This document shows, one piece after another, positions 10,617 through 56,375 of a stretch of DNA of 64,000 nt. Location: positions 431 to 64,430 of the IMG/VR virus record IMGVR_UViG_3300025288_000016. One strand, written 5' to 3'. The notes below the pieces were generated by a model. That model worked only from the letters and a program-made list of their open reading frames with translations, was not told where the DNA came from and searched no databases. Every line of letters begins with the position of its first letter. Within the stretch, counting starts at the first letter, position 1. The translations under genes were made by a program, and so were the position numbers. The stretch comes from a virus (Duplodnaviria > Heunggongvirae > Uroviricota > Caudoviricetes > Crassvirales).

Positions 10617-12899
10617 TTATTCTTCATCAGAATACATTATTCTTTCATTAGTTTTATTACGATTTTTATAATTTTTATTAAAAAAAGAATCATTTGATAA
10701 ATTTTTAATTTTTTCTCCTTGTCTTGCTTTAACAGATTCACTTCGTTTAACTCTATCTTCTCTAAGTATAAATAACATTATACCTGCTGAAACCCTATCA
10801 AAGTTACCATCTGAGTTCCACTTAATACATTCTTCTATATAAGCTAAACCTCTTAATCTATGAAGATTTAATCTAGTATCTTCTTCATCACCATAAGCTT
10901 TACTTCTTTGCCAATCAGCTTGAAGTAATCTACCCCATGAATTTATTTGTGCATTTGCATGTGTACCTTTAGCATTATTACCATAAAGATTAGTAGCTTT
11001 CATAAAATTCATATCTTTAAGTATTTGTGGGTTATCTGCTAAATAATGTAAACTATTATGTTTATCAAAATAACTAAATAAACCTTTTAAGTTTTTTTCA
11101 TAATTTCCTTCTGCATTATAAAACTTTAATGTTCTTAAAGCTATTTCGTATGCTTCATTAGCTGTTCTAGGTCTACCAGAATATTCTGCTACAATTCTAT
11201 CAGTAAAAGTGTCCATTACTAATATACTAAATAAAGATTCACCTGTATCAGCATCAATAGGGTCAATTCCAGCAATATATCTACCTCTAGGAATATAACC
11301 TTCAGAATTCTTTTTAGGCATTTCAAATATTTCTAAAGCTCCTGATTTATCTGCACTAGCAGTATCATAACTTCTTAAAGGATGTCTATCAGAATTAGGT
11401 CTCCATACAATAGTTCCAGTAGTATCATATACTAATTCACCAACCATGTGTTCTGCAAGAAAGCTATCTTTTTTAACAGATATTTGTTCTAAATATTCTT
11501 TTAAATCTGCTACAGGAAATACAGTACCTTCAGTACGCATTACTGCTTCTTGTGGAGTTATAGGTTCTTCTGCTTTCTTTTGTGTAATAGCATTAGCATC
11601 AGATGAACTATATTTCACTTCATATCTATCTAAACATATTTCTAGTAAAGCTTTAATTATATCTGGTTCACCTGTATTTTCGTTATAACATTTATTTCTA
11701 TTTAAATATGCTCCCCAAAAGAATCCGCATTTTGTACTACCATCAGTATTTCTATCAAATACATTAGGAATACCATATATTTTATATGCTTTAGGTCTAT
11801 AAAATAATTTTTCAGAACCAGCAAATGACGCTCCCTCAACTCCACCAGTACCACCAGCAAGCATAAATCCAGAAGCTACACCACCATCTTCCACAGCTTT
11901 TCTATTTACGTTCCAAGCTTTTTCTAAATTAGGAAACAAACCGTCTTCTTCATAATGGATTAGAGGTCCTCTGATACCCCTTGCTTTATCTGGATTATCT
12001 TTCATTGATATACCAAATACAGAAGATAATAAACCTTTTCTTCCACCATATTCATCTTCATATCCTAACTGGAGTTCCATAGCTTTTTTACCATCTTGTA
12101 ATCTCATTCTAGGTAAAGGGGTATGCGCAGCTATAAAATCTAAATTATCTAAAATTTTACCCCATATACCTTTATCGCCAGTTAAAAATGTTTTTTCAGA
12201 AGCTAAATGAAAATTAGGGTTTTGTGACCCAGGTAATACATACATATTTCTAGGACTCCAAGATGCAGTTTTTAAACTAAATCCAACTCCCCTAGTTTTT
12301 AATAACTTTCCATGCTCTCCTTCTTCTTTAGCAGCATGAACATAATGATGAAATAAATAATCCCCTAACCATGGTTTAGGAAATTTTTTAACTCTTTCCA
12401 CACGTTTCTTACTACGTGTATTTTTATCTTTTTCTGTTAAAGGAATTTGTGTATAATTCCAATAAAAATATAATTCCCCTGGAATCCATTCACCATCTTC
12501 TCTTATTTGACCATATTTCCATTTATATAATTCTTCTTTCCAAAATTGTGCATATTCAGATTTAGGATTACCATTTGGTATTAAATTAGTATATTTTCCA
12601 TTTTTTTCAAAAAATATTGCTTTCTCTCTAAAAAAATCCATATTTTCTAAAATATGAGGATTAGTTATATCTATAACTTTTCTACCATCTTCATATTCTT
12701 TAATAGTATCGTCATCATCTTCATAAGTCATTACAGGTTTATCTTTAATAAAACCTCTTATTTCTTCTGGAGCAATTAAATTTTGAATGAATTTTACTTG
12801 TGATATATATTCTAATATATCATCCCAAACTTCTTTAGGAACAGAATCTCTAACTTCATCAGTTAAAGAACTCTGGTAACTATTCATTTTTATATCCAT
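10617..12899 (-). CDS. putative terminase large subunit (atypical, 760 aa)
   Basis: Lies immediately upstream of the portal gene. The C-terminal region carries an RNaseH-like nuclease signature (YIAGIDPIDADTGESLFSILVMD). No clean Walker A was found. Confidence 0.4.
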   Translation of the reverse strand: MDIKMNSYQSSLTDEVRDSVPKEVWDDILEYISQVKFIQNLIAPEEIRGFIKDKPVMTYEDDDDTIKEYEDGRKVIDITNPHILENMDFFREKAIFFEKNGKYTNLIPNGNPKSEYAQFWKEELYKWKYGQIREDGEWIPGELYFYWNYTQIPLTEKDKNTRSKKRVERVKKFPKPWLGDYLFHHYVHAAKEEGEHGKLLKTRGVGFSLKTASWSPRNMYVLPGSQNPNFHLASEKTFLTGDKGIWGKILDNLDFIAAHTPLPRMRLQDGKKAMELQLGYEDEYGGRKGLLSSVFGISMKDNPDKARGIRGPLIHYEEDGLFPNLEKAWNVNRKAVEDGGVASGFMLAGGTGGVEGASFAGSEKLFYRPKAYKIYGIPNVFDRNTDGSTKCGFFWGAYLNRNKCYNENTGEPDIIKALLEICLDRYEVKYSSSDANAITQKKAEEPITPQEAVMRTEGTVFPVADLKEYLEQISVKKDSFLAEHMVGELVYDTTGTIVWRPNSDRHPLRSYDTASADKSGALEIFEMPKKNSEGYIPRGRYIAGIDPIDADTGESLFSILVMDTFTDRIVAEYSGRPRTANEAYEIALRTLKFYNAEGNYEKNLKGLFSYFDKHNSLHYLADNPQILKDMNFMKATNLYGNNAKGTHANAQINSWGRLLQADWQRSKAYGDEEDTRLNLHRLRGLAYIEECIKWNSDGNFDRVSAGIMLFILREDRVKRSESVKARQGEKIKNLSNDSFFNKNYKNRNKTNERIMYSDEE

Positions 12900-14347
12900 A
12901 ATCTATTATTTATTACTACAGCTTTAGTAGATAATATTACTTTAGCTATTGATATAGCATTTTGTAAAGCTACTCTAGTTACTTTAGTTGGGTCAACGAT
13001 ACCAAGTTTAAATAAATTATTTCTAACTATTTTCATATCTCCTCCATTTTTAAAAATATTATCTATAGGTGCATGTAAACAATATTGAAATTTATTATTA
13101 ATATATAATTCTCCTATAAAAGATAACTCTTTACCAGCTCCTTGAATAATACCTTCTTCTAAAGCACAACTAACAGCAAGTACAGCATCATCAATTCTAT
13201 CTTTTCTTTCTTTCATTTCAAGTTCAGATTTACCACCTACTTTAATTACAGAAATACTACCAGATAAATTATCAATTCTTTGTTGTGTTAATTCTTTTTG
13301 TGTATCTGTTAAATCAGATAAGCTTTCTTTAAGTTTATTAGCTAATTCTAAAGCTTCTATTGGTATATCTTCTTTAGTTAGTAATATACTATCACTTGTA
13401 GCTTTTAAAGAGCTTATATGTCCAATTTTACCACCAGCAAATAATGTTATATCATTCATCAAATCTTTACGATGTGTAGCAAATCCTGGAGATTTAAGTA
13501 AAGCTATATTTAATAATCCTCTATTATAATTATCTCTTAAAATAGATATTACACTATCAGAGAAATGGTCTGCTATTATAGCTATACCTTTAGGATTTTG
13601 TTCGATAATTTTAGCATAAGGTTTTAAATCATCTAAATGTCCTTCTACTACTAATAGGGGAATATCATTATATTCAATTGATTGTTTAGATGGATTATTT
13701 ATAAATGCTTTATCAAAATATCCACTATTTAATCTCATACCTTTAAGAGTAATTAATTCATCATATTCTTTATTACCTTCTTCTACTTTAACAGTATTAG
13801 AATTATTAAAAGCTTGTTGAATTAATTCTCCTATAATATCATCATTATTAGCTGATATGGTTGCTACTTCATATATTTTTTCTTTATTTAATTTATTAGA
13901 ACATAATTTAAGTTCTTTTAATACATCTTTTTCTAAATTATCTAATTCTAATTTTATTTCATTATATGTTAAAGTTTCTTTTTTATTAAATAATTTTTGT
14001 ATAAAATTTCTATTATCTTTTTTTAATAATTCAAATCCTTTATTAATAAAAGCTTGAGCTAAACATATAGATGTAGTAGTACCATCACCTGCTTCTTTAA
14101 CAGTATTTTGAGCAGCTTGTTTTACTAAATTAGCAGCTATATTTTTAATAGGGTCTTCAAAAGTAATATAATTAGCCACAGATACACCATCTTTAGTTAC
14201 ATAAGGTTTACCATTACTATCAGCAATTATAACTGTACTACCATTAGGTCCGTATGTTAATAAAACAGTATCAGCTAATTCATTAATAGCTTCTAATAAT
14301 AATTTACTACAATTTTCTCCTGTTGTTATTTCTTTATTCATTTCCAA
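12890..14347 (-). CDS. groEL: GroEL-family (Cpn60) chaperonin
   Basis: Recognisable blocks: LTYGPNGSTV..VTKDGVSVA, AGDGTTTS.CLAQAF, ATISANNDDIIGELI, ALLKSPGF..RKDLMNDITLFAGGK, ISVIKVGG.SELEMKERKDRIDDA and LGIVDPTKVTRVALQNAISIA. The last block is near-identical to GroEL [21 protein letters not shown]. Confidence 0.9.
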   Translation of the reverse strand: MEMNKEITTGENCSKLLLEAINELADTVLLTYGPNGSTVIIADSNGKPYVTKDGVSVANYITFEDPIKNIAANLVKQAAQNTVKEAGDGTTTSICLAQAFINKGFELLKKDNRNFIQKLFNKKETLTYNEIKLELDNLEKDVLKELKLCSNKLNKEKIYEVATISANNDDIIGELIQQAFNNSNTVKVEEGNKEYDELITLKGMRLNSGYFDKAFINNPSKQSIEYNDIPLLVVEGHLDDLKPYAKIIEQNPKGIAIIADHFSDSVISILRDNYNRGLLNIALLKSPGFATHRKDLMNDITLFAGGKIGHISSLKATSDSILLTKEDIPIEALELANKLKESLSDLTDTQKELTQQRIDNLSGSISVIKVGGKSELEMKERKDRIDDAVLAVSCALEEGIIQGAGKELSFIGELYINNKFQYCLHAPIDNIFKNGGDMKIVRNNLFKLGIVDPTKVTRVALQNAISIAKVILSTKAVVINNRLWI

Positions 14348-28425: not shown

Positions 28426-28543
28426 GGGGGAGTAGCTCAGTTGGTAGAGCACTTAAAACTCTATTCTGTATAAGAATAGATACAGCAAAATAACTATGCA
28501 ATTTGAATGCAATGGTCATAGGTTCGATTCCTATACTCCCCCC
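28426..28543 (+). ncRNA. tRNA-like structured RNA, non-canonical (~118 nt): acceptor, D-arm and T-arm present, with ~66 nt in place of a normal anticodon arm. Candidate Y-RNA/YrlA-like RNA.
   Basis: GGGGGAG-TA-GCTC-AGTTGGTA-GAGC 5' end and ATAGG-TTCGATT-CCTAT-(A)-CTCCCCC 3' end. The interior contains an 8-bp hairpin TCTATTCT/AGAATAGA and no U33/anticodon loop. Confidence 0.55.
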
Positions 28544-29159: not shown

Positions 29160-30635
29160 ATGAAAAAAAACACAATTAACAGACCAGGACAAAAACCTGT
29201 ACAACAATCACTTTTAGTAAATGCTGTAAGAAAAGAAAAAAAAGTATATACTAATAATGGTGCTAGAACAAATGCTACATCATTATATAAAGTATTAGAT
29301 TTATTTTTTATTGCTGGTGCATCACGTAATATGAATGATAAAAAAATCATTGAAATGTTTGATGCAGCATTAGCAGAAAATACTTTATTAGCATTAAAAT
29401 GTATATTTTGGGCTAGAGATATTAGAGGTGGTGCAGGTGAAAGAAGATTTTTTAGAATCTGTATGGAACATTTAAGAAAAGATTATAATGAAATTTATAA
29501 ATCTATGACTCAATATGTTCCTGAATATGGTCGTTGGGATGATTTATTTTTTTCAAATGCAACAGCTTTATCTAATTACAGAATGATTAGGACAAGTTTA
29601 AACAACAAAAATGGTTTATTAGCTAAATGGTTACCACGTAAAGGTAATATAGCTAAAATTATTAGAGATAAACTTGGATTATCACCTAGAATATATAGAA
29701 AAACTATTGTTAGATTATCACAAACAGTTGAACAACAAATGTGTGCTAAACAATGGAAACATATTAATTATTCTGGTGTACCATCTGTAGCTATTAATAA
29801 ATATAGAAAAGCTTTTTATCGTAATGATGAAGCTAGATTTACTCAATTTATAACATCTGTTACAAAAGGTACTAAAAAAATTAATGCTAAAGCTATATTT
29901 CCACATACACTTGTTAGAGCAATTTATCAAGGGGAAAATGAAAGAGCAGTTGAAGCACAATGGATGAATTTACCTAATTACATGGAAGGTTCAAAAGATA
30001 GAATTTTACCTATTTGTGATACTTCAGGTAGTATGTCAATAAATAGTAATATTCCTATGGATGTGTCTATAGCACTAGGTATATATATTTCAGAAAGAAA
30101 TAAAGGTCCATTTAAAAATGCTTTTATGACATTTTCAGCTAAACCTGAAATGCATGTTACTAATGGTACATTATCTCAAAGATTAAATCAAATTAGAAAT
30201 GCTCCTGCTGGTTATAATACTAATTTGGTAGCTTGTTTTAATCTTCTTTTAGAAACTGGTATTAAACATGATTTATCTAATAAAGATATGCCTACTAAAA
30301 TATTAGTTATTTCTGATATGGAATTTGATGGTACAGCAAGTAGTTATTATGTTAGTGCTAGAGAACAAGCCAAATCTTCTAGAGAATTTTTAAGTAATTA
30401 TGAAATTATTAAAAGAAATTATACAAACTCTGGTTATAATATGCCAAGTATTGTATTTTGGAATGTAAATGGTAGAGCTGAAAATGTACCTGCTACAAAA
30501 GATGATAGAGTAGGTTTAGTATCTGGATTTAGTCCTGCAATATTAACATCAATATTATCAGGTAAAATTTATAGTCCATCTCAATTAATGTTAAGAACTA
30601 TAGATTCTGATAGATATAGACAAATAAAATTATAA
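29160..30635 (+). CDS. von Willebrand factor A (MIDAS) domain protein with alpha-helical N-terminal domain; Ro60/TROVE-like or DUF2828-like architecture
   Basis: MIDAS motif DTSGSM at aa 287-292 begins a C-terminal vWA domain. A ~280-aa helical N-domain with ARDIRGGAGERRFF precedes it. 491 aa in total. Confidence 0.5.
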   Translation: MKKNTINRPGQKPVQQSLLVNAVRKEKKVYTNNGARTNATSLYKVLDLFFIAGASRNMNDKKIIEMFDAALAENTLLALKCIFWARDIRGGAGERRFFRICMEHLRKDYNEIYKSMTQYVPEYGRWDDLFFSNATALSNYRMIRTSLNNKNGLLAKWLPRKGNIAKIIRDKLGLSPRIYRKTIVRLSQTVEQQMCAKQWKHINYSGVPSVAINKYRKAFYRNDEARFTQFITSVTKGTKKINAKAIFPHTLVRAIYQGENERAVEAQWMNLPNYMEGSKDRILPICDTSGSMSINSNIPMDVSIALGIYISERNKGPFKNAFMTFSAKPEMHVTNGTLSQRLNQIRNAPAGYNTNLVACFNLLLETGIKHDLSNKDMPTKILVISDMEFDGTASSYYVSAREQAKSSREFLSNYEIIKRNYTNSGYNMPSIVFWNVNGRAENVPATKDDRVGLVSGFSPAILTSILSGKIYSPSQLMLRTIDSDRYRQIKL

Positions 30636-41085: not shown

Positions 41086-41409
41086 ATGGAAAAAGGAGAA
41101 AGATTTAATGAAGGAAAATTAAAATGGAGTTTAGTTTCATGGAAAGCATTAGAACCAATGGTTCAAGTATTAATGTTTGGAGCTAAAAAATATGCACCTA
41201 ATAATTGGAAAAAAGGTGTAAGTTATACAGAAACTTGTGAAAGTTTACAAAGACATATAAATTCTTTTTTAGAAGGTGAAGATATTGATAAAGAAAGTAA
41301 AATTGTTCATATAGGACATATACTATGTAATGCAATGTTTTTATCATATATGTTTTTATTTAGAAAAGATATGGATAATAGATATATTGATGAAAATTTA
41401 AAAAAATGA
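41086..41409 (+). CDS. dATP/dGTP diphosphohydrolase N-terminal-like (DUF550/MazG-related) protein
   Basis: FGAKKYAPNNWKKG.......SLQRHINSFLEGE...H.GHILCNAMFL matches the GA.KYG..NW.KG...SR...S..RH pattern of mycobacteriophage-type dNTP diphosphohydrolases. Confidence 0.45.
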   Translation: MEKGERFNEGKLKWSLVSWKALEPMVQVLMFGAKKYAPNNWKKGVSYTETCESLQRHINSFLEGEDIDKESKIVHIGHILCNAMFLSYMFLFRKDMDNRYIDENLKK

Positions 41410-43286: not shown

Positions 43287-43315
43287 AAGGGGGTATAAAA
43301 ACCCCCTTATATCTT
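43287..43315 (+). terminator. Rho-independent terminator
   Basis: AAGGGGGT-ataaaa-ACCCCCTT then a T-rich tail. Confidence 0.55.
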
Positions 43316-43331: not shown

Positions 43332-44414
43332 ATGACAATAAATTTAAACAAAAAACTAGTTACAAAAGAATTATTATTAAAACATGTGCTAGATATAGAA
43401 ATATATCTTCATTATAGTAAACAAAATGTTGTTATAAAAAAACCTATGTTGTCACCTTTAAGAACAGAATTAACACCTTCATTTGGTTATTTTATGGGTG
43501 AATCAGGAGAAATATGTTTTAATGATTTTAAATTAGGTAAAGGAGATTGTATAAAATTTGTACAAATCATGTTTGATTTAAATTACTTTGAAGCTTTAAG
43601 TAAAATTGTAATAGATTTTAAATTAACTGATAAATTTTATTATAAAAATTTACAATCTAATCATAATAAACCTATAACTAAAATAGATTATTCTTTTAGA
43701 GAAAGTATTATTAAAAAAAATCATAATATTAAATTAGGAAAAAAAAAGAGAGATTGGAAACTTTATGATTTAGTATATTGGCAACAATATGGTATTAATT
43801 TAGATATATTAAACAAATATAAAGTTGAACCTATAGAATATATTTTTATAAATGATAAACCTATTTTAGCAGATAAATATACTTATTGTTTTACTGAATT
43901 TAAAGATGGTAATAAAACATATAAAATATATCAACCTTTTAATAAAGAATTTAAATGGTTAAATAATCATGATTCTTCTGTGTGGCAAGGATGGAAACAA
44001 CTTCCTGAAAAAGGAGATGAATTAATTATAACTAAATCTTTAAAAGATGTAATGTCAATTGATTCTATTTTAGGAATACCAGCTGTATCATTACAATCAG
44101 AAGGTACAAAACCTAAACCACATATTATACAAGAATTAAAAAATAGATTTAAAACAATTTATTTATTATATGATAATGATTTTGATAAAGAAAAAAATTG
44201 GGGACAAATATTTGCTAAAGAATTATATAAAGAATTTGATATGATTAATTTAATGATACCCAGTGAATTTGAATCAAAAGATTTTAGTGATTTAGTAAAA
44301 AATGTTGATAATTTTGAAATTGGTATTTTAACAACAGATGAAATTGCTAAGAAAAAAACATTAAAAGAAAAAATAACATTAATATGGCAATGTAATATAC
44401 AAATGCCTTTTTAA
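43332..44414 (+). CDS. Toprim-domain DNA primase-like protein
   Basis: LLYDNDFD (DxD) and the upstream ELIITKS acidic motif. Confidence 0.45.
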   Translation: MTINLNKKLVTKELLLKHVLDIEIYLHYSKQNVVIKKPMLSPLRTELTPSFGYFMGESGEICFNDFKLGKGDCIKFVQIMFDLNYFEALSKIVIDFKLTDKFYYKNLQSNHNKPITKIDYSFRESIIKKNHNIKLGKKKRDWKLYDLVYWQQYGINLDILNKYKVEPIEYIFINDKPILADKYTYCFTEFKDGNKTYKIYQPFNKEFKWLNNHDSSVWQGWKQLPEKGDELIITKSLKDVMSIDSILGIPAVSLQSEGTKPKPHIIQELKNRFKTIYLLYDNDFDKEKNWGQIFAKELYKEFDMINLMIPSEFESKDFSDLVKNVDNFEIGILTTDEIAKKKTLKEKITLIWQCNIQMPF

Positions 44415-44437: not shown

Positions 44438-44830
44438 ATGAGAGTAGCGGTATATGGTACATTAAGAAAAGAAGGTAGAAATCATGGACTTATAAGTGGT
44501 TTAAAATATTTAGGTTCTTTTGAAAGTAATCCTGAATATGAAATGCGTTCAATAGGAGTATTTCCTGGGATAAAAAAATATGGAAATACTTCAATATATC
44601 TTGAAGTTTTTGAAGTAGATATGAATACATTAAAAAGATTAGATGAATTAGAAGGATATAAAGGTTATAATAATGAACGTAATTACTTCGATAGACAAAT
44701 TATAATTACTCCTTGGGGAAGAACATTAATTTATTTTTTTAAACCTGAATTTAAAACAGCAAATCCAATTATAAAATCTGGTAATTGGATAGAATATCTT
44801 AAAACAAAAAATATTGAAAACTATGCTTAG
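44438..44830 (+). CDS. gamma-glutamyl cyclotransferase-like (AIG2/GGCT fold) protein
   Basis: VAVYGTLRKEGRNHGL (YGTL motif) and a downstream LDELEGY catalytic-Glu region. 130 aa. Confidence 0.6.
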   Translation: MRVAVYGTLRKEGRNHGLISGLKYLGSFESNPEYEMRSIGVFPGIKKYGNTSIYLEVFEVDMNTLKRLDELEGYKGYNNERNYFDRQIIITPWGRTLIYFFKPEFKTANPIIKSGNWIEYLKTKNIENYA

Positions 44831-45740
44831 TCACTTTAGACCTAAAATTTTAAGTAGACATCCTTCACACGATGTTCTAAGAAAAAAATTATCATTTCCC
44901 TTGTTTCCTTTTAAATCAGTAATAAGATTAGGTTCTTTTACTAAATTAGAAGATACTTTAAGTGAAAATGGTAATAGAATTGAATTAAATACAGTTGAAG
45001 CTATTAATAATTCAGCTGATAAACTATTAATGAAACAATGTTTTACTAAAGATAAAGTTAAAACAGCTGATTGGTTTACTATAGAATCTTCAGATAGGTA
45101 TATTTATTATAAAAATGGAGATATTAATATTGGTTCATCTGATGATAATGAAAATCCATTACCTTTCCCTCTAATAGCTAAACACAGATTAGGTAGTAAA
45201 GGAAGAGGTAATTATAAATTAGATTCATTAGAAGAGCTTAAAACATGGTTAAATAAAAGATTAGATAGACTAGATGAATATATTTTTGAAAAATTTTATA
45301 ATTATGTAAAAGAATATAGACTTCATATTACAGAAGATGGTTGTTTTTATACTTGTAGAAAAATGTTAAAATCTGATACACCAGATAAAGATAAGTGGTA
45401 TAGAAATGATGAACATTGTGTTTGGATTATGGAACAAAATGAAGCTTTTGATAAACCTGATTCTTGGGATAATATATTATATAATTCAATAAAAGCATTA
45501 AAATCTACTGGTTTAGATTTTGGAGCTGTTGATGTTAAAGTTCAGAGTTCTACTAATAAAAAAGGGGAAAAAAGAAACAATGCAGATTTTATTATTATTG
45601 AAATAAACTCAGCACCTTCTTTTGGTAAAGTAACAGAGGAGAAATATCTTTATATATTACCTCAATTATTGTTAAATAAATATTATAAAATAATTAAACA
45701 AAATGATACAACAGAAAAAAACATTGAGAGTACTTGTTGA
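44814..45740 (+). CDS. ATP-grasp ligase (RimK/glutathione-synthetase-like)
   Basis: PLIAKHRLGSKGRGNYKL (ATP-grasp Gly-rich loop), EYRLHIT and GLDFGAVDV...ADFIIIEINSAPSF (Mg/ATP site). The real start is probably internal. Confidence 0.55.
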   Translation: MKTMLSHFRPKILSRHPSHDVLRKKLSFPLFPFKSVIRLGSFTKLEDTLSENGNRIELNTVEAINNSADKLLMKQCFTKDKVKTADWFTIESSDRYIYYKNGDINIGSSDDNENPLPFPLIAKHRLGSKGRGNYKLDSLEELKTWLNKRLDRLDEYIFEKFYNYVKEYRLHITEDGCFYTCRKMLKSDTPDKDKWYRNDEHCVWIMEQNEAFDKPDSWDNILYNSIKALKSTGLDFGAVDVKVQSSTNKKGEKRNNADFIIIEINSAPSFGKVTEEKYLYILPQLLLNKYYKIIKQNDTTEKNIESTC

Positions 45741-46443
45741 TAGAGGATTTAGTTCTGAATATGAAGAATTTCTTTCTAGAAGATTTAATGCAGAATTTAT
45801 AGTTTTTGGTAAAGATAAAGATGGTAAATTTCCTAAAAATATAGATTTATTATTATTTACAGGTGGGGCAGATGTTAGTCCTAATTTTTATGGTGAAAAT
45901 AAAGGTAACCAGACATCTACTAATATAGCAAGAGATGAAGAAGAAAATATAATGTTTAATACATATAATTATCTTCCAAAATTAGGTATATGTAGAGGTT
46001 CACAATTTTTAACTGTTATGTGTGGTGGTAAATTAATACAACATGTTAACGGACATTTAGGAAATCATAAAATTCATATAAAAAATAATGATATTTATGA
46101 TGAAAGGTTGCCATTTTCTGAATATGAAATTACTTCTACACATCATCAAATGATGTACCCATTTTTATTACAAAAAGAATCTTATGAAATAATAGGTTGG
46201 TCTAAAAAATTTTTAAGTAATACATACTTAAATGGTAATAATACTGAAATAGAATTAACTTCTGATTTTTTAGAACCAGAAATAGTATATTATAAAGAAG
46301 GTACAGCATTATGTGTTCAAGGACATCCAGAAATGAATAGTTGTCCAAAAGTTACTTCTGATAAAATATTAAATTTAATTTACCAAATATTAATAAAAAA
46401 AAATAGTTATAATAATCAATATGAAAAACAACCATGCGAGTGA
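45703..46443 (+). CDS. Class I glutamine amidotransferase-like / peptidase C26 (gamma-glutamyl hydrolase type)
   Basis: LFTGGADVSPNFYG, nucleophile elbow LGICRGSQFL and His in VQGHPE. Confidence 0.65.
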   Translation: MIQQKKTLRVLVDRGFSSEYEEFLSRRFNAEFIVFGKDKDGKFPKNIDLLLFTGGADVSPNFYGENKGNQTSTNIARDEEENIMFNTYNYLPKLGICRGSQFLTVMCGGKLIQHVNGHLGNHKIHIKNNDIYDERLPFSEYEITSTHHQMMYPFLLQKESYEIIGWSKKFLSNTYLNGNNTEIELTSDFLEPEIVYYKEGTALCVQGHPEMNSCPKVTSDKILNLIYQILIKKNSYNNQYEKQPCE

Positions 46444-47246
46444 TAAAACAAATTAAAATAGGTACAGACCCAGAACTATTTTTGAAAAAAGATGGTGAAA
46501 TTATTTCTGCTGAAGGTCTAATAGGAGGTACTAAAGAATTACCTCTAAAAATTTCTAAACAAGGTCATGCTATTCAAGAAGATAATGTTATGATTGAATT
46601 TAATATTCCTGCTTGTACTAATAGTGAATCTTTTGTAAAAGAAATAAATTTTGTAAAAGAATATTTAGAACAATTAGCAAAAATATATGATTGTACATTA
46701 GATTATTCTGCTTCTGCAATATTAAATAAAAAATATTTAGATACACCTCAAGCAAAAAGATTTGGTTGTGACCCTGATTTAAATGTTTATTTAAAATCAA
46801 TAAATGAATCACCTAATTCAAACACTAATATGAGAACTTGTGGTGGTCATATTCATATAGGATATAAAAATCCTTCTTTAGAAACAAGTGAATCAATTAT
46901 CTATGCCATGGATATTATGTTAGGACTTGAATCTTTAATACTTGATAAAGATACAGAAAGAAGAAAAATGTATGGTAATGCAGGTTGTTTTAGATTTAAA
47001 GATTATGGTGTAGAATATAGAACTTTATCTAATTTTTGGATTACATCTGATGAATTAATAAAATGGGCATTTGATAATACATTAAAAGCTATTGAATTAG
47101 TAAATTCAGGATTAATACCAGAGTTAATAACTGAATTTGGTAATGAAATTAAAAATGCAATTGACAATAATAATAAAAATGAAGGTCAAACATTATTAAA
47201 GAAAATAAAAGAAAAAATAAAAGAAAAGAAATGTGTGGAATTGTAG
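46434..47246 (+). CDS. GCS2-like carboxylate-amine ligase (amidoligase), short paralogue
   Basis: IGTDPELFL (lG.E.Ef.lvd-like), CGGHIHIG (compare YbdK GQHVHVG) and VEYRTLS. Confidence 0.5.
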   Translation: MRVIKQIKIGTDPELFLKKDGEIISAEGLIGGTKELPLKISKQGHAIQEDNVMIEFNIPACTNSESFVKEINFVKEYLEQLAKIYDCTLDYSASAILNKKYLDTPQAKRFGCDPDLNVYLKSINESPNSNTNMRTCGGHIHIGYKNPSLETSESIIYAMDIMLGLESLILDKDTERRKMYGNAGCFRFKDYGVEYRTLSNFWITSDELIKWAFDNTLKAIELVNSGLIPELITEFGNEIKNAIDNNNKNEGQTLLKKIKEKIKEKKCVEL

Positions 47247-49192
47247 CTTGGGCAGGTAAAACACCTAAAAAATTTAACAAAGCAAAGTTTGATTTAGTAG
47301 CTTCTTATAATGAAGAAAGAGGTACAGATTCATGTGGTGTAGCAACTGATGGATTTATATCTTTAGGAGTTCATAACAATAAAGTTTATAGAGATTTTAT
47401 TGTTAATGTAAAATATGAAATTCCAGAAATTATTCCAGCTGTTATAGGACATACTAGAAAAAGTACTTTTGGTGAACATAATGAAGATAATGCTCATCCA
47501 TTTGGTTTTGGAGAAATAGAAGGTGGTAGATTTGAATTTATAGGTGTTCATAATGGGAGCTTATTAAATCATAAAATACTTGCTAAAAAATTTAATATTA
47601 ATTCAACAGAATATATAACGACTAATAAAAAGAAAAATAAAGTTTCAAAAAGTAGAGAAAAAATTGATAGTGAAATATTATTAGAATGTATTTATAAAAA
47701 TAAAAATTTTAAAGTACTTAGTTCATATCTTGGTGCAGCAGCATTAGTTTTTCAAGATTTAAATACTCCAAATATAATTTATTGTTGGCATGGTGCATCT
47801 AAAAAATATGTAAATGATAATGATGGTAAAATATATGAAGAAAGACCTTTATACTATTATAAAGAAACTAGAAATAGTATTTATATATCTTCAATGGAAA
47901 ATTCATTAGAAGCTATCGGTGGAATTAAAGATGAAACTATATTTGAATTTAAACATAATGTTGTATATAAAATAACAGATGGTAATATAGAAAAAGCTGA
48001 ATTATTTCCTTTAAGTAGAAAAGAATGTCATTACATGAGGTCTTATGGTCAAGATTATGAAAATATTAATCCTGTAAATAATAATCAAACTAACGCTTAT
48101 AAAAAAACAGCTAATTATGGTTTACAAATTGATTTTTATAATGATGAAGATTTTTTAAAACATCAAGGTTGTTGTAATATTGATACAAGTAAAAAAATTT
48201 TAGCTCTTCCTTTTTCTCAAAATATAAAAGATATAGATTCTGTTAATAATAATCTTTATTCCCAAAAAGGTATAATGATTTCTCATAATATTTATAATGA
48301 AATAAAACCTGAAACAGAATATAAAACTAGTTGTTATTTTTGGAAACTTAGATATTGGAAAGATACAAGTTTATTACAAGGATGTTATACTTTTATTGAA
48401 AATTTTGGTTTTTATTATCTTGGTAAAAATATTAAAACTGCAAATGACCAATTTTGGTTTTTAACAAACAAAGAATTTTTTCAAGGAGATTTCTGTTTTG
48501 TAAACCAAAATTTAACTAAAGAAGATGGTGCATTTATACCTTTTTTACAAGTAGGTGGAGAAGATGAAATTATTGAACCACCATTATATTATTTCTATAA
48601 AGGAATTAGAGTATTAGAAGTTACTGATTATATCCATTGTTTAGAAATGGAAGAGAATAAAAAAACATTTACTTGGGAGAATATGACTCATTGTTCTGCT
48701 CACCCAATTATAGATATAGGTTATTCTCAAAAAAGTATTTCTACTCAAGGAATTAAACTTAAAGATAGATTAGTTACTGACATTATTTGTCCATTAGGTT
48801 CTAATAGAATTTATACAATTGAAAATGGTAATTGTATAAAAATTGAAGACAAAATGATTATAGATAGTGATGATAAATCTAAAGATAAAAATGATTCTAA
48901 AACAAAAACTGTAGATACAGTTGATACTATAGTTGAACTTCTAGAGGATTTTGAAAATGATATTCAAAAAAATGAAGCATCTAAAAATAATATAGATAAT
49001 ACTAGAGATTATGATTTAGTAGAAAAAACTTTAGAAGAAATTTTTAAGATACCTTTTGGAAAATTTCCATTAGATATAGCAAGATTACAAAAATATTCTA
49101 ATTTAGAAAAGGTTAATGACGCAATTATTATTTTAGAAACATTTTTAACAGATACTAGAAAATTAATTGAAATTGAACCAAAAGAACAATAA
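47231..49192 (+). CDS. N-terminal nucleophile (class II) glutamine amidotransferase domain protein with long uncharacterised C-terminal region
   Basis: Begins MCGIVAW (Cys2 nucleophile), then ..GTDSCGVAT.., IGHTRKSTFG and GVHNGSLLNH. No PP-loop SGGxDS was seen. Confidence 0.65.
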   Translation: MCGIVAWAGKTPKKFNKAKFDLVASYNEERGTDSCGVATDGFISLGVHNNKVYRDFIVNVKYEIPEIIPAVIGHTRKSTFGEHNEDNAHPFGFGEIEGGRFEFIGVHNGSLLNHKILAKKFNINSTEYITTNKKKNKVSKSREKIDSEILLECIYKNKNFKVLSSYLGAAALVFQDLNTPNIIYCWHGASKKYVNDNDGKIYEERPLYYYKETRNSIYISSMENSLEAIGGIKDETIFEFKHNVVYKITDGNIEKAELFPLSRKECHYMRSYGQDYENINPVNNNQTNAYKKTANYGLQIDFYNDEDFLKHQGCCNIDTSKKILALPFSQNIKDIDSVNNNLYSQKGIMISHNIYNEIKPETEYKTSCYFWKLRYWKDTSLLQGCYTFIENFGFYYLGKNIKTANDQFWFLTNKEFFQGDFCFVNQNLTKEDGAFIPFLQVGGEDEIIEPPLYYFYKGIRVLEVTDYIHCLEMEENKKTFTWENMTHCSAHPIIDIGYSQKSISTQGIKLKDRLVTDIICPLGSNRIYTIENGNCIKIEDKMIIDSDDKSKDKNDSKTKTVDTVDTIVELLEDFENDIQKNEASKNNIDNTRDYDLVEKTLEEIFKIPFGKFPLDIARLQKYSNLEKVNDAIIILETFLTDTRKLIEIEPKEQ

Positions 49193-49197
49193 AATTT

Positions 49198-50919
49198 ATG
49201 GAAACAAATATGGTAACCACAGTAGATGGTAGAATAGAAGAGAAGATAAATTGTAGAAAAATGAATGGTTTATATTATGTTAAAGGCGATATAAATATTG
49301 AAAATTCTGGTGAATGTTACTTAATTGATGATAAATATTATAAATATAATACTGGATATATAATTTTTGATAACAGTGTACATAAATATGTATTAAAAAG
49401 TACACTTAAAGATAAATTTTATGTAGAAAAAGGTATTATAGATTTTAAAAATGGTAATGAGCCAATATTTGGTAGTTATTCTTTAGAAAAAAATAATGAT
49501 ATTTATGTTTTAATTATAAATAATAAATATTCTTGTATTAATGAAGATATTTTAAAAAATAATATACATTTTTTAGAAAATTTAGAAGATGGAATATATT
49601 ATGAAAGAAACAAATTAGATTCTTATAAATATGTTTTTCCTACAAAATGTAGTAGAGATTTTAAATATTCTTTGTCTTACGATTCTAGAGGATTAACTGA
49701 AAAAGCAGAAAAAAAATATATTGAATCTTATAAACCAGAATTATATCATATTGGTTTAGAATCAGGTAAAAGTGATATTACAAAAGGTTTAAGTTTTGGT
49801 CTTGAATTTGAAACTTCATTAGGAATAGTTCCGTTAAGAATATGTTCTAATTTAGGATTAATACCTTTAAGAGATGGAAGTATAGATGGATTAGAATATG
49901 TAACAATACCATTAAAAGGTAAAAATGGTATGCAAACAGTGTTAGATACTTTAAAAGTATTAAAAAGAAGAACAGTTTATAATAATGATTGTTCATTACA
50001 TTTGCATATTGGTAATATTCCAAGAACTGAAGAATTCTTTTTAGCATTGTTTAAAATATTATTTATATTACAAGATGATATGTATTCAATGTTTCCATTT
50101 CATAAAAAAGAAAATTATGAAGTAAAAAGAAAACATTATACAAAACCACTTCCTTTAAAAGAAACAATGTTATTATTTGATTCAAAAATTAAAACTAAAG
50201 AAGATATTAAAAGAAATTTTGATATTTTATATAGATTTTTATCAATGAACCAAAGTTATGATGCTGCTGGAGGAAAACTTTCTAATATTAAATCTCATCC
50301 TTCTGACCCAGGAGGTAATAGTAAATGGAATATTAAAACTCGTTATTATTGGGTTAATTTAATTCCATTATTATTTGGAAATAAACAAACTGTAGAGTTT
50401 AGAATTCATACTCCTACTTATGATAGTAATAAAGTAATTAATTATATGTTAACTTGTTTTTCTATAATTGATTATGTTATTAAAAATGAAACTTCTATAT
50501 TAAGTAATTTTCAACAACATGTTAATATTAATTTAAATCATGTTGTATTTGAAAGTTATTATAAAGATTTTTCAAATATTAGAATTGTAGAAGAACTTCA
50601 ACGTTATTTTGATTGTAGAAAAAGACATTTCTTTTTTAAAACTAAAAAAGGTGATTTTTTAGCAAATGAAGATGAATTTTCTTATACTCCTAAATATTTG
50701 AATTGGGAATCTACAAATAATAAATTAAATAACTCTTTCAAGTTTAGTTCTAATTTAAGTGTACCTGCTTATGATAATATAGGTTTAGATATACAACTTA
50801 ACGACGCAATAAGGCGCGTTGCTGCTAGAATAGATGATAATATTAGGATAGTTAATCCTGCATTTGAAGAAAATGATTTATTTATAAATAATGAACCTGA
50901 ACAAGAACTACCAATATGA
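49198..50919 (+). CDS. GCS2-like carboxylate-amine ligase (amidoligase), long paralogue
   Basis: GLSFGLEFETSLGIVPL, DGSIDGLEYVTIPL, CSLHLHIG and TVEFRIHTPT. Same motif order as 46434-47246. Confidence 0.5.
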   Translation: METNMVTTVDGRIEEKINCRKMNGLYYVKGDINIENSGECYLIDDKYYKYNTGYIIFDNSVHKYVLKSTLKDKFYVEKGIIDFKNGNEPIFGSYSLEKNNDIYVLIINNKYSCINEDILKNNIHFLENLEDGIYYERNKLDSYKYVFPTKCSRDFKYSLSYDSRGLTEKAEKKYIESYKPELYHIGLESGKSDITKGLSFGLEFETSLGIVPLRICSNLGLIPLRDGSIDGLEYVTIPLKGKNGMQTVLDTLKVLKRRTVYNNDCSLHLHIGNIPRTEEFFLALFKILFILQDDMYSMFPFHKKENYEVKRKHYTKPLPLKETMLLFDSKIKTKEDIKRNFDILYRFLSMNQSYDAAGGKLSNIKSHPSDPGGNSKWNIKTRYYWVNLIPLLFGNKQTVEFRIHTPTYDSNKVINYMLTCFSIIDYVIKNETSILSNFQQHVNINLNHVVFESYYKDFSNIRIVEELQRYFDCRKRHFFFKTKKGDFLANEDEFSYTPKYLNWESTNNKLNNSFKFSSNLSVPAYDNIGLDIQLNDAIRRVAARIDDNIRIVNPAFEENDLFINNEPEQELPI

Positions 50920-51659
50920 GAAGAGCAATTTTAAAACGTCCATTAAATTTAGATTATACTGAACTTTTTGGAAAAAGTTGGATAGATGTATTAACACCAT
51001 TACTTGCTTCTTCATATATGTTTAATTTAATGGCACTTATAAATGAAATTTATAGTTTGTTACCTAATCAAATATTAGGACAAGGATTTGTATATCCTTA
51101 TAAAAGTAGACTATTTACAAATTTTAGAGCTTGTGATTGGATTAATTTAAAAGTAGTAATAGTAGGAAGAGAACCTTACCAATCACATAGAGCAATAGGT
51201 GTTCCTTTTGCCACACATGTTAATAATAATAATGTTATTTTAGAAGATGATTTAATATTAATTGAAAGATGTATTCGTAAAAATATATATAATAATTCAA
51301 CACAATATGTATTTGATGAATCTCTAAGTACATGGGGGATGCAAGGTGTATTTCTTATTGATGCTGCTTCTACATCAGAAGAAACTAGTAAAAATGCACA
51401 TTCTATAATATGGAAAAATTTTACTAGAGAAGTAATAAAAATAATAAGTTCAAAAAAAACAAATATTATTTTTTTATTATGGGGTGCAGAAGCTAAATAT
51501 TTTAGTAGATATATTGATAGAGAAAAACATCATGTATTAGTTTATGACCATCCTAGTGATGCAAAAACTCGTAATACAGATTGGAATTGTACACATTTTA
51601 AAAGTGTTAATGACATTTTATTAAGAACTACAGAAAATAATGAAGAAATAGATTGGTAA
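50916..51659 (+). CDS. Uracil-DNA-glycosylase-superfamily fold protein (divergent)
   Basis: VVIVGREPYQSHRAIGVPFA (compare family-1 GQDPYHGPNQAHGLAFS) and a C-terminal VYDHPSD (compare HPSPLS). Confidence 0.45.
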   Translation: MRRAILKRPLNLDYTELFGKSWIDVLTPLLASSYMFNLMALINEIYSLLPNQILGQGFVYPYKSRLFTNFRACDWINLKVVIVGREPYQSHRAIGVPFATHVNNNNVILEDDLILIERCIRKNIYNNSTQYVFDESLSTWGMQGVFLIDAASTSEETSKNAHSIIWKNFTREVIKIISSKKTNIIFLLWGAEAKYFSRYIDREKHHVLVYDHPSDAKTRNTDWNCTHFKSVNDILLRTTENNEEIDW

Positions 51660-56326: not shown

Positions 56327-56375
56327 AAGGTAGAGACAATGGAGAGTCCCGTGGGTTCGAGTCCCACCTACCTTT
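56327..56375 (+). other. tRNA 3'-half / minihelix-like element (duplicate of the tRNA-Met T-arm and 3' acceptor)
   Basis: AAGGTAG...GTGGG-TTCGAGT-CCCAC-CTACCTT. The 21 nt GTGGGTTCGAGTCCCACCTAC are identical to 32661-32681 of the tRNA-Met. No D-arm or anticodon arm. Confidence 0.55.

Follow-up and report, generated by a model that had tools for sequence, protein, structure and literature searches.

A Phage-Restricted Cassette of Amide-Bond Enzymes Between the Primase and Uracil-DNA Glycosylase-Like Genes of a Marine crAss-Like Phage

Introduction

The closest described relative of the gene cassette considered here lies in Cellulophaga phage phi14:2 (Crassvirales, Steigviridae, Akihdevirus), where it is already annotated as g037-g042, and Pfam families have been named for the wider module to which it belongs. 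We analyzed a further copy in a 64,000-nucleotide stretch of viral DNA (positions 431 to 64,430 of IMG/VR record IMGVR_UViG_3300025288_000016; hereafter the window), in which six contiguous genes between those for a DNA primase and a uracil-DNA glycosylase (UDG)-like protein encode enzymes of amide-bond chemistry. The window and phi14:2 share the gene order primase, gamma-glutamyl cyclotransferase (GGCT), ATP-grasp ligase, COOH-NH2 ligase, class II glutamine amidotransferase (GATase-II), Amidoligase_2, UDG-like protein, RusA and exonuclease, with 31-54% protein identity. The phi14:2 GATase-II, of 638 aa, carries the lineage-specific "domain X" described below, and its Amidoligase_2 has the same N-terminal domain as that of the window. 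Unlike the window, phi14:2 has no C26 gene, and upstream of its cassette stands a ThyA/ThyX-annotated gene, whose place in the window is taken by a MazZ-like gene and an open reading frame (ORF) of 152 aa.

A second described form is found in PaP3/LUZ24 (Bruynoghevirus; ORF42-48) and the Gordonclarkvirinae, podoviruses of Proteobacteria that are unrelated to the window phage. They share with it the COOH-NH2 ligase type 2, Amidoligase_2, an N-terminal nucleophile (Ntn) GATase-II, the ATP-grasp ligase and the GGCT, likewise encoded on a single strand beside primase/helicase genes, and their ligase is 33-41% identical to that of the window; the name of PF14395, "Phage phiEco32-like COOH.NH2 ligase-type 2", comes from the phiEco32 context. 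The PaP3/phiEco32-type gene order differs (L-x-M-N-A-G, with L the COOH-NH2 ligase, M Amidoligase_2, N the Ntn GATase-II, A the ATP-grasp and G the GGCT; below, C and U denote C26 and UDG), the GATase-II and Amidoligase_2 are shorter proteins with neither domain X nor the N-terminal beta domain, and an ~200-aa protein between the ligases and two ~320-aa proteins upstream have no counterpart in the window. In PaP3, ORF32-48 are middle genes, co-expressed with the primase/helicase and polymerase (PMC4707531). Phage genome papers repeatedly list the module genes, and a sequence-only reading of the window had said that comparative work discusses the set. We found this to be so: PMC11945000 labels it a "putative peptidoglycan modification module" and relays an earlier comparative argument, and PMC8989533 notes such domains near thymidine-hypermodification genes.

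The cassette can also be set beside better understood pathways. Like E. coli PuuA/PuuD, it pairs a ligase of the glutamine synthetase (GS) fold, gamma-glutamylating in PuuA, with a C26-type enzyme, a gamma-glutamyl hydrolase in PuuD; it differs in having no oxidase or dehydrogenase steps, in having three ligases rather than one and in adding an Ntn amidotransferase and a cyclotransferase, and sequence similarity to the Puu enzymes is at superfamily level only. The Pau/Spu enzymes of Pseudomonas are related to Puu polyamine catabolism. In butirosin biosynthesis, the ATP-grasp enzyme BtrJ is a gamma-glutamyl ligase and the AIG2-like cyclotransferase BtrG strips the gamma-glutamyl protecting group. 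The cassette may be likened to BtrJ/BtrG in combining ligases with an AIG2/GGACT-fold enzyme in one operon, a resemblance by analogy only; it has no carrier protein, pyridoxal-phosphate enzyme or acyltransferase. With the thymidine hypermodification systems the cassette shares a location in the phage replication and nucleotide module; it differs from them in that none of their enzymes for 5-hydroxymethyldeoxyuridine (5-hmdU), 5-hmdU DNA kinase (5-HMUDK) or aGPT-Pplase was detected in the window.

Results

Genes of the Cassette and Their Relatives

The cassette and the gene that follows it comprise seven features:

44438..44830, + strand: AIG2/GGACT-like gamma-glutamyl(amine) cyclotransferase, 130 aa (Pfam GGACT 2.4e-14; YGTL at Y6-L9, catalytic Glu72)
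44823..45740, + strand: RimK-like ATP-grasp ligase, 305 aa from ATG 44823 (phrog_2599 2.1e-29)
45703..46443, + strand: class-I glutamine-amidotransferase-fold / peptidase C26 hydrolase, 246 aa (Peptidase_C26 7.7e-20; triad Cys97-His208-Glu210)
46434..47246, + strand: phiEco32-type COOH-NH2 ligase type 2 of the GCS2/GS superfamily, 270 aa (PF14395 1.3e-11; phrog_3815 1.2e-77)
47231..49192, + strand: Ntn (class II) glutamine amidotransferase, 653 aa (GATase_6 2.8e-6, N-terminal part only; MCGI, N-terminal Cys)
49198..50919, + strand: Amidoligase_2, a carboxylate-amine ligase of the GS/glutamate-cysteine ligase (GCL) fold, 573 aa (PF12224 1.1e-10; catalytic core aa ~195-485)
50916..51659, + strand: family-1 UNG-fold protein with altered active site, 247 aa (Pfam UDG 7.5e-9)

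The seven ORFs are consecutive on the + strand, the six cassette genes spanning 44438-50919 and the seventh 50916-51659, and they are tightly packed, with six junctions overlapping by 4-38 nt and one leaving a gap of 5 nt. The ORF listing begins the ATP-grasp gene at TTG 44814; the ATG at 44823 is the likelier start and matches metagenome gene calls. When scanned as single sequences against Pfam, six of the seven exceeded the gathering score, the ATP-grasp protein alone falling below it. The sequence-only reading had proposed this six-gene cluster with an adjoining UDG-fold gene, and the ORF listing agrees with it; Pfam, PHROG and profile searches likewise support all seven of its family assignments, and the motifs that it named (YGTL; LGICRG...GHPE; GGHIHIG and SLHLHIG; MCGI) are all present.

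The Pfam score (54.3 bits against a cut-off of 22.8), the YGxL motif and the catalytic Glu place the cyclotransferase in the GGACT/AIG2-like family; it also matches phrog_2520 (2.3e-18), and its family profile finds E. coli YtfP (3.2e-25) and human GGACT (1.3e-6). Among 21 homologues Y6, G7 and G73 are invariant and E72 nearly so. The ATP-grasp protein reaches an E value of only 0.084 in Pfam by itself (13 vs. 27 bits), and a profile built from 25 homologues matched, in the PDB, the alpha-L-glutamate ligase of Pseudomonas (7qyr, 4.5e-11) and then cyanophycin synthetase, RimK and Ddl; its relatives among characterized enzymes are RimK, cyanophycin synthetase and MptN. Its score against the NCBIfam model rimK_fam (TIGR00768; 1.5e-6) is 27.8 bits, far from the family cut-off of 143.4, and we thus call it RimK-like rather than a RimK orthologue. 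Residues K70, E167, R169, K183, D240 and E263 are invariant and N265 nearly invariant. Membership of the third enzyme in C26 is given by its Pfam score (72 bits vs. a cut-off of 20.5) and by the Cys-His-Glu triad C97, H208 and E210, invariant in 22 homologues. Its profile matches Lin1909 (1.1e-22), a "probable glutamine amidotransferase" (7d4r, 4.4e-14) and PuuD (7.7e-12). The best NCBIfam match, gamma-glutamyl-CDP-amidate hydrolase (7.6e-8), lies below its cut-off, and the score against the PuuD equivalog is 22 bits where 266 are required, so that identity of substrate is not implied.

The COOH-NH2 ligase scores 44.7 bits against the PF14395 cut-off of 25, and D12, E14, E55, R134, H139, H141, E194 and R196 are invariant across nine divergent homologues with 32-73% identity. 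The amidotransferase consists of a glutaminase domain (aa 1-270), whose relatives among characterized enzymes are PurF, GlmS and EgtC, a linker (274-349) modeled at low confidence and possibly disordered (predicted local distance difference test, pLDDT, <50), domain X (350-545) and a helical tail (564-647). The structural relatives of Amidoligase_2 are GCL, YbdK, PafA/Dop and GS. Catalytic residues are kept in all six cassette enzymes, and judged from these residues all six thus appear catalytically competent.

Distribution of the Module in Phages

The six genes are a copy of a widespread, phage-restricted "phiEco32/PaP3-type amidoligase module", with the COOH-NH2 ligase type 2, Amidoligase_2, Ntn amidotransferase and ATP-grasp ligase all present here in one operon. 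A tblastn search with the COOH-NH2 ligase found matches in 318 phage records. These include Bruynoghevirus (PaP3/LUZ24), the phiEco32-like Gordonclarkvirinae, PA11/TC6, the gut crAss-like phage cr108_1, phages of Vibrio, Aeromonas, Proteus and Salmonella and one jumbo Vibrio phage; the match summary names no Bacteroides or Flavobacterium phage. A degenerate-pattern scan located the ligase in at least 530 IMG/VR loci. Among cellular genomes, one for each of 185,579 species, the family appeared on nine contigs only, all of them contigs of metagenome-assembled genomes or tiny scaffolds and some of phage size: the module is restricted to phages. The novelty that the sequence-only reading implied for the gene set does not hold, given the annotated cassette in phi14:2 and a core present in 318 sequenced phages; its statement that the set lacks biochemical characterization does hold, as full-text literature searches aimed at the module found none.

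We scored hidden Markov models of the window proteins against all ORFs of 89 loci. The ligase co-occurs with the Ntn GATase-II in 85 of the 89, with Amidoligase_2 in 82, with the ATP-grasp ligase in 81, with a C26-like protein in 70 and with the GGCT in 39, many of the absences reflecting incomplete contigs. Such a gene set is far beyond chance and is syntenic across the analyzed loci, and its four-enzyme core (COOH-NH2 ligase type 2, Amidoligase_2, Ntn GATase-II and RimK-like ATP-grasp) travels together across very different phages. In the window, the cassette is co-oriented, contiguous and overlapping, between the primase and UDG-like genes and beside replisome genes, following the crAss-like layout primase-GGCT-ATPgrasp-C26-L-N-M-UDG. 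The podovirus-type layout reads [C26]-L-(~200 aa)-M-N-ATPgrasp-[GGCT], after which come genes for a Toprim primase, a DnaB helicase and PolA, and wherever the neighbors could be identified the module stands beside a primase, helicase or polymerase. Two variants of the cassette were also seen: marine crAss-like loci L018-L027 of IMG/VR have an expanded form in which GGCT-like and C26-like genes are each present twice (G-G-C-A-C-L-N-M-U), and in loci L033, L036, L038, L061 and L067 Amidoligase_2 is followed by a second Ntn amidotransferase.

The catalytic core is conserved, and the presumed acceptor-recognition parts are lineage-specific. Domain X is modeled confidently (pLDDT above 90), carries invariant residues and is confined to this architecture, occurring in 24 of the 89 loci and in 126 clusters among 1.84 billion representatives; a search of the PDB with aa 350-545 gave no match. 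The beta-rich N-terminal domain of Amidoligase_2 (aa 1-~140), found in crAss-like copies only (38 loci), gave no fold match. Other lineages have extra stand-alone proteins in place of these two domains, and the accessory proteins of PaP3, Bas91 and cr108_1 matched no Pfam family. The idea that domain X or the ligase N-terminal domain exists elsewhere as a stand-alone protein, through fusion or fission, was rejected: hhalign gave probabilities of at most 0.5% in eight of eight comparisons with the ~200-aa family (c8), the ~320-aa family (c20) and the C-termini of the short-type enzymes, and PaP3 ORF49/50, compared by BLASTP only, gave no match.

A Variable Slot Between Primase and UDG

Homologues of the UNG-fold protein are encoded by crAss001, the PhiCrAssBcn phages and the Flavobacterium Fpv phages. 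We found no cassette gene in the primase-UDG regions of crAss001 and Fpv2. In Fpv2 (locus L091, 5009-6789) the slot is empty, the primase gene directly abutting or overlapping the UDG gene, and in crAss001 (locus L090, 1732-6954) it holds five other genes, including one for a ThiF/E1-like enzyme (8e-16) and one with a weak, sub-threshold match to Prok-JAB (4.9e-4). It follows that the six cassette genes occupy this variable primase-UDG slot as an insert. The UDG-fold gene, which the sequence-only reading had taken as an associate of the cassette, is part of the crAss backbone of the replication module and flanks the cassette without belonging to it.

By fold and sequence similarity the protein is a family-1 UNG (Pfam UDG, 36.2 bits vs. 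a cut-off of 24.3; human UNG in the PDB, 7.6e-24; NCBIfam UNG models up to 4e-38, the equivalog score of 131 bits falling short of the 162-bit cut-off), and by its catalytic residues it is not. Alignment with human UNG shows GREPYQ for GQDPYH, FLID for LLLN and HPSDAK for HPSPLS, which puts Glu at the catalytic Asp145, Asp at the uracil-specifying Asn204 and Ala at the Leu272 finger; His268 (in HPS), Tyr147 and Phe158 are kept. Within the marine clade (loci L001-L034), where the ORF is retained in place, the catalytic Asp is missing in 20 of 20 copies and the His is kept in only 5 of 20; the UDG-like protein of phi14:2 also lacks the catalytic Asp. The Asp, the Asn and the HPA motif are all retained in the gut-clade copies (n = 10), in crAss001 and in Fpv2, the gut-clade sequence being GQDPYP in nine copies and AQDPYP in one. 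Loss of the Asp does not go hand in hand with having the cassette. These substitutions suggest a non-glycosylase role in the marine clade, and the protein may be a pseudo-glycosylase or an enzyme of changed specificity. Poxvirus D4 is a precedent for a UDG serving as a polymerase processivity subunit, and in human UNG the N204D mutation opens the pocket to cytosine.

Discussion

A Candidate Ligation-and-Trimming Pathway

All nearest characterized relatives of the cassette enzymes make or break amides at glutamate or glutamine. By analogy with them, we give roughly even chances to an ATP-driven, non-ribosomal pathway that would ligate and trim glutamyl or glutaminyl amides on an acceptor other than DNA. 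The two GS/GCL-fold ligases would convert a carboxylate, most likely the gamma-carboxylate of glutamate, into an acyl phosphate for coupling to an amine, and the RimK-like enzyme would add an alpha-linked glutamate or another amino acid. The Ntn amidotransferase would hydrolyze glutamine and pass the ammonia to an activated carboxylate via its own domain X or, in an alternative, EgtC-like role, would cleave a gamma-glutamyl amide. Gamma-glutamyl groups would be stripped by the C26 hydrolase, which resembles PuuD, and by the GGACT-like cyclotransferase, either as trimming or as a BtrG-like deprotection, and the product would be a small glutamyl or glutaminyl amide conjugate or a tag on the non-DNA acceptor. 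The presence of makers and breakers in one operon would not be futile if the gamma-glutamyl group is a transient protecting or activating group, and polyamine catabolism by Puu/Pau, ergothioneine synthesis with EgtA/EgtC and butirosin synthesis with BtrJ/BtrG all provide precedents for this arrangement.

As to the acceptor, our first, tentative choice is a small metabolite, either a peptide or an amine of the polyamine kind. A protein is somewhat less probable, DNA or a nucleotide is unlikely, an acceptor of some other kind equally so, and a peptidoglycan precursor is the least probable of these.

Several observations weigh against the ligation-and-trimming pathway as drawn. Each chemical step that goes further than "ATP-dependent amide ligase" or "glutaminase or gamma-glutamyl hydrolase" is drawn by analogy. 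The profile of the COOH-NH2 ligase type 2 has no match in the PDB at E <= 1, and thus no solved relative, and since neither domain X nor the N-terminal domain of Amidoligase_2 has a match, the acceptor-binding parts cannot be interpreted. A precursor-peptide gene was not found in the cassette ORF listing, which leaves a peptide or protein target without a candidate. The constant linkage to replisome genes would be expected of a system directed at DNA or nucleotides too, the module-bearing Gordonclarkvirinae/Kuraviruses resist restriction-modification (RM) systems (PMC11990801), and our scan for hypermodification genes covered 47 ORFs of the window, with ~36 kb of the ~100-kb genome lying beyond it.

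Alternative Acceptors

The alternative that survives best, though still improbable, is protein tagging, in which a host or phage protein would be glutamylated or linked through gamma-glutamyl-lysine in the manner of RimK/S6 or of PafA/Dop/Pup, with the C26 and GGCT enzymes as erasers. The closest ATP-grasp relatives are indeed RimK-type ligases, the cyclotransferase profile matches GGACT, which degrades epsilon-(gamma-glutamyl)-lysine, and the large lineage-specific accessory domains could recognize a macromolecule. However, these accessory proteins have no detectable homology between lineages, which is unexpected for one conserved protein target, and no gene for a tag or precursor lies in or next to the cassette in the window. 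In the structural comparisons of Amidoligase_2, GCL and GS match as well as or better than PafA/Dop. The ThiF(E1-like)/JAB cassette in the crAss001 slot would be a hallmark of ubiquitin-like conjugation, but its Prok-JAB match is the sub-threshold one noted above.

We consider it rather unlikely that the ligases place glutamate, glutamine or another amino acid on a base or nucleotide, with the amidotransferases and cyclotransferase maturing the adduct and the DNA thereby protected from host nucleases. In favor of this, the module is embedded in the replication and nucleotide-metabolism block of unrelated phage lineages and is middle-expressed in PaP3 (PMC4707531), and Lee et al. report amidoligase and amidotransferase Pfam domains beside 5-HMUDK/aGPT-Pplase genes on some metagenomic contigs (PMC8989533). 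The nearest NCBIfam model of the C26 protein, although matched below threshold, acts on a nucleotide-linked glutamine, and the adjoining UNG-fold protein has an altered base pocket. The unexplained RM resistance of the Kuraviruses also counts for this minority reading. Yet no ThyA-like dUMP hydroxymethylase, 5-hmdU kinase, aGPT-Pplase, TET/JBP enzyme or transglycosylase was found among the 47 scanned ORFs of the window (37 with Pfam and 10 more with PHROGs). The 5-hmdU DNA kinase and aGPT-Pplase families both have Pfam models. In PMC8989533, 5-hmdU is the starting point of all the thymidine hypermodification pathways described, and the 45-kb PaP3/LUZ24 phages have the full core without such genes. 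DNA of the LUZ24-like phage U17, for which the module is listed by its authors, is cut by 11 of 16 restriction enzymes and was the most sensitive of four phages tested (PMC11945000). The window also encodes a dUTPase, which together with the canonical UDG of module-bearing gut-clade relatives argues for ordinary thymine DNA, and the BASEL authors suspect a dCTP deaminase and a nucleotidyltransferase behind the RM resistance (PMC11990801). The missing 5-hmdU-pathway genes and the U17 digests thus speak against the amino-acid-decorated DNA base that the sequence-only reading had put forward.

The peptidoglycan proposal, in which the three ligases would build unusual stem-peptide links that block superinfection or prepare the wall for lysis, we regard as still less probable. 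It has the label and the argument summarized in PMC11945000. D-Ala-D-Ala ligases are among the ATP-grasp profile matches, and some bacteria use Ntn or class-I amidotransferases to amidate their stem peptides (LtsA/AsnB1, GatD/MurT). The proposal is itself a prediction only, however, the best ATP-grasp relatives are of the RimK type rather than Ddl, no Mur ligase, transpeptidase, flippase or wall-binding domain was found in the cassette or its conserved neighbors, and the module is co-expressed with replication genes, not lysis genes (PMC4707531).

Least probable is joint action of the cassette and the UNG-fold protein on nucleic acid, the latter as a reader or scaffold that would flip bases, with the ligases placing a glutamyl or glutaminyl adduct on a base of the DNA or on a deoxynucleotide, which if true would be a 5-hmdU-independent route to amino-acid-decorated DNA and would explain the RM resistance of Kuraviruses.

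The module is among the most widespread multi-enzyme cassettes of tailed phages still without a known product, and its carriers include therapy candidates of the LUZ24/PaP3 and phiEco32 groups as well as gut and marine crAss-like phages. To what was known, our analysis adds its restriction to phages, its status as a swappable insert in the primase-UDG slot, the conserved catalytic centers and the lineage-specific acceptor-side domains, together with the E1/JAB alternative in the crAss001 slot and the degenerate UNG-fold protein of the marine clade. Its product, if found, would define a new infection-phase chemistry, whether it proves to be a metabolite or a protein tag or, with lower probability, an adduct of DNA. 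The question can be tested in the cultured relatives phi14:2, PaP3 and the BASEL Kuraviruses, the window being no privileged entry point.

Genome Context and Further Observations

The window comes from a marine crAss-like phage related to phi14:2, its nearest isolate, with which it shares gene order and a patchy nucleotide identity of ~68%. The same phage is present on 11 metagenome contigs, and as the 653-aa protein is encoded on one of 99,929 bp, the window represents about two thirds of an ~100-kb crAss-like genome. Base composition is 20-31% G+C, and the coding strand switches at ~21.5 kb. The - strand arm encodes the portal, large terminase and major head protein and a GroEL-like chaperonin (12890-14347, - strand; phrog_5725, 1.3e-97), whose gene adjoins those for the large terminase, portal and major head protein. 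The + strand arm contains the replication block, with DnaB-like, MazZ-like NTP pyrophosphatase, Sak4-like ATPase and primase genes, the cassette and the UDG-like gene, then RusA-like, PD-(D/E)XK exonuclease, dUTPase, class II ribonucleotide reductase (RNR) and two metallophosphoesterase genes. The nucleotide-metabolism neighborhood that the sequence-only reading described, with MazG-like, dUTPase and class II RNR genes, is found as follows, together with the primase and other features of the arm:

41086-41409, + strand: MazG/MazZ-like protein, 107 aa (PF18909 1.7e-31, covering the whole N-terminal domain of a MazZ-type dATP/dGTP diphosphohydrolase)
43332..44414, + strand: DNA primase, the upstream flank of the cassette slot, given for context only (42% identity to the phi14:2 g036 primase and 36% to the cr108_1 primase)
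From 53947: dUTPase
From 54460: class II RNR
28427-28542 (+), 30907-30980 and 32613-32686: three tRNA or tRNA-like sites (ARAGORN, Rfam)
29160-30635 and 31457-32560, + strand: DUF7788/DUF2828 and SPFH/Band-7 genes

We considered the MazZ-like gene as a partner of the module or a hint of a Z-genome and rejected it, as the PF18909 family occurs in 807 phage records without a link to the cassette, mostly those of Propionibacterium, Arthrobacter and Klebsiella phages that have no amidoligase module; no PurZ-like gene or candidate of PurZ size was seen in the window. Directly upstream of the primase gene, at 43287-43308 on the + strand, lies a G+C-rich hairpin, AAGGGGGT...ACCCCCTT, with a T-rich tail. 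It is the sole strong terminator-like site on that strand within 42.7-45.8 kb and may mark the start of a primase-cassette-UDG transcription unit. A scan for sigma-70 promoters gave counts equal to the shuffled expectation and is uninformative in a sequence of 24% GC. A second hairpin, GTGGGTTCGAGTCCCAC (56351-56367, + strand), just past the RNR gene, has a perfect tRNA T-arm sequence. We rejected it as a tRNA, since neither ARAGORN nor Rfam called it and its sole match was an 18-nt hit to a tmRNA T-arm; the hairpin may represent a terminator or what is left of a tRNA.

On the + strand arm, tRNA-Gln(TTG) and tRNA-Met(CAT) were called by both ARAGORN and Rfam, whereas Rfam alone gave a third match, tRNA-like and 116 nt long (35.5 bits), perhaps an intron-containing or otherwise atypical tRNA. 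Directly downstream of the tRNA-Met the DNA polymerase seems to be divided between an exonuclease-like ORF of 313 aa (32841-33782, + strand) with a weak PolB-exo match and a separate 262-aa ORF (34414-35202, + strand) that matches a DNA polymerase PHROG at 6e-68, and the gene may be split or interrupted. Early in the same arm, and unrelated to the cassette, are genes for a 491-aa DUF7788/DUF2828 protein (7.4e-48 and 2.2e-32) and a 367-aa SPFH/Band-7 protein (1.1e-20).

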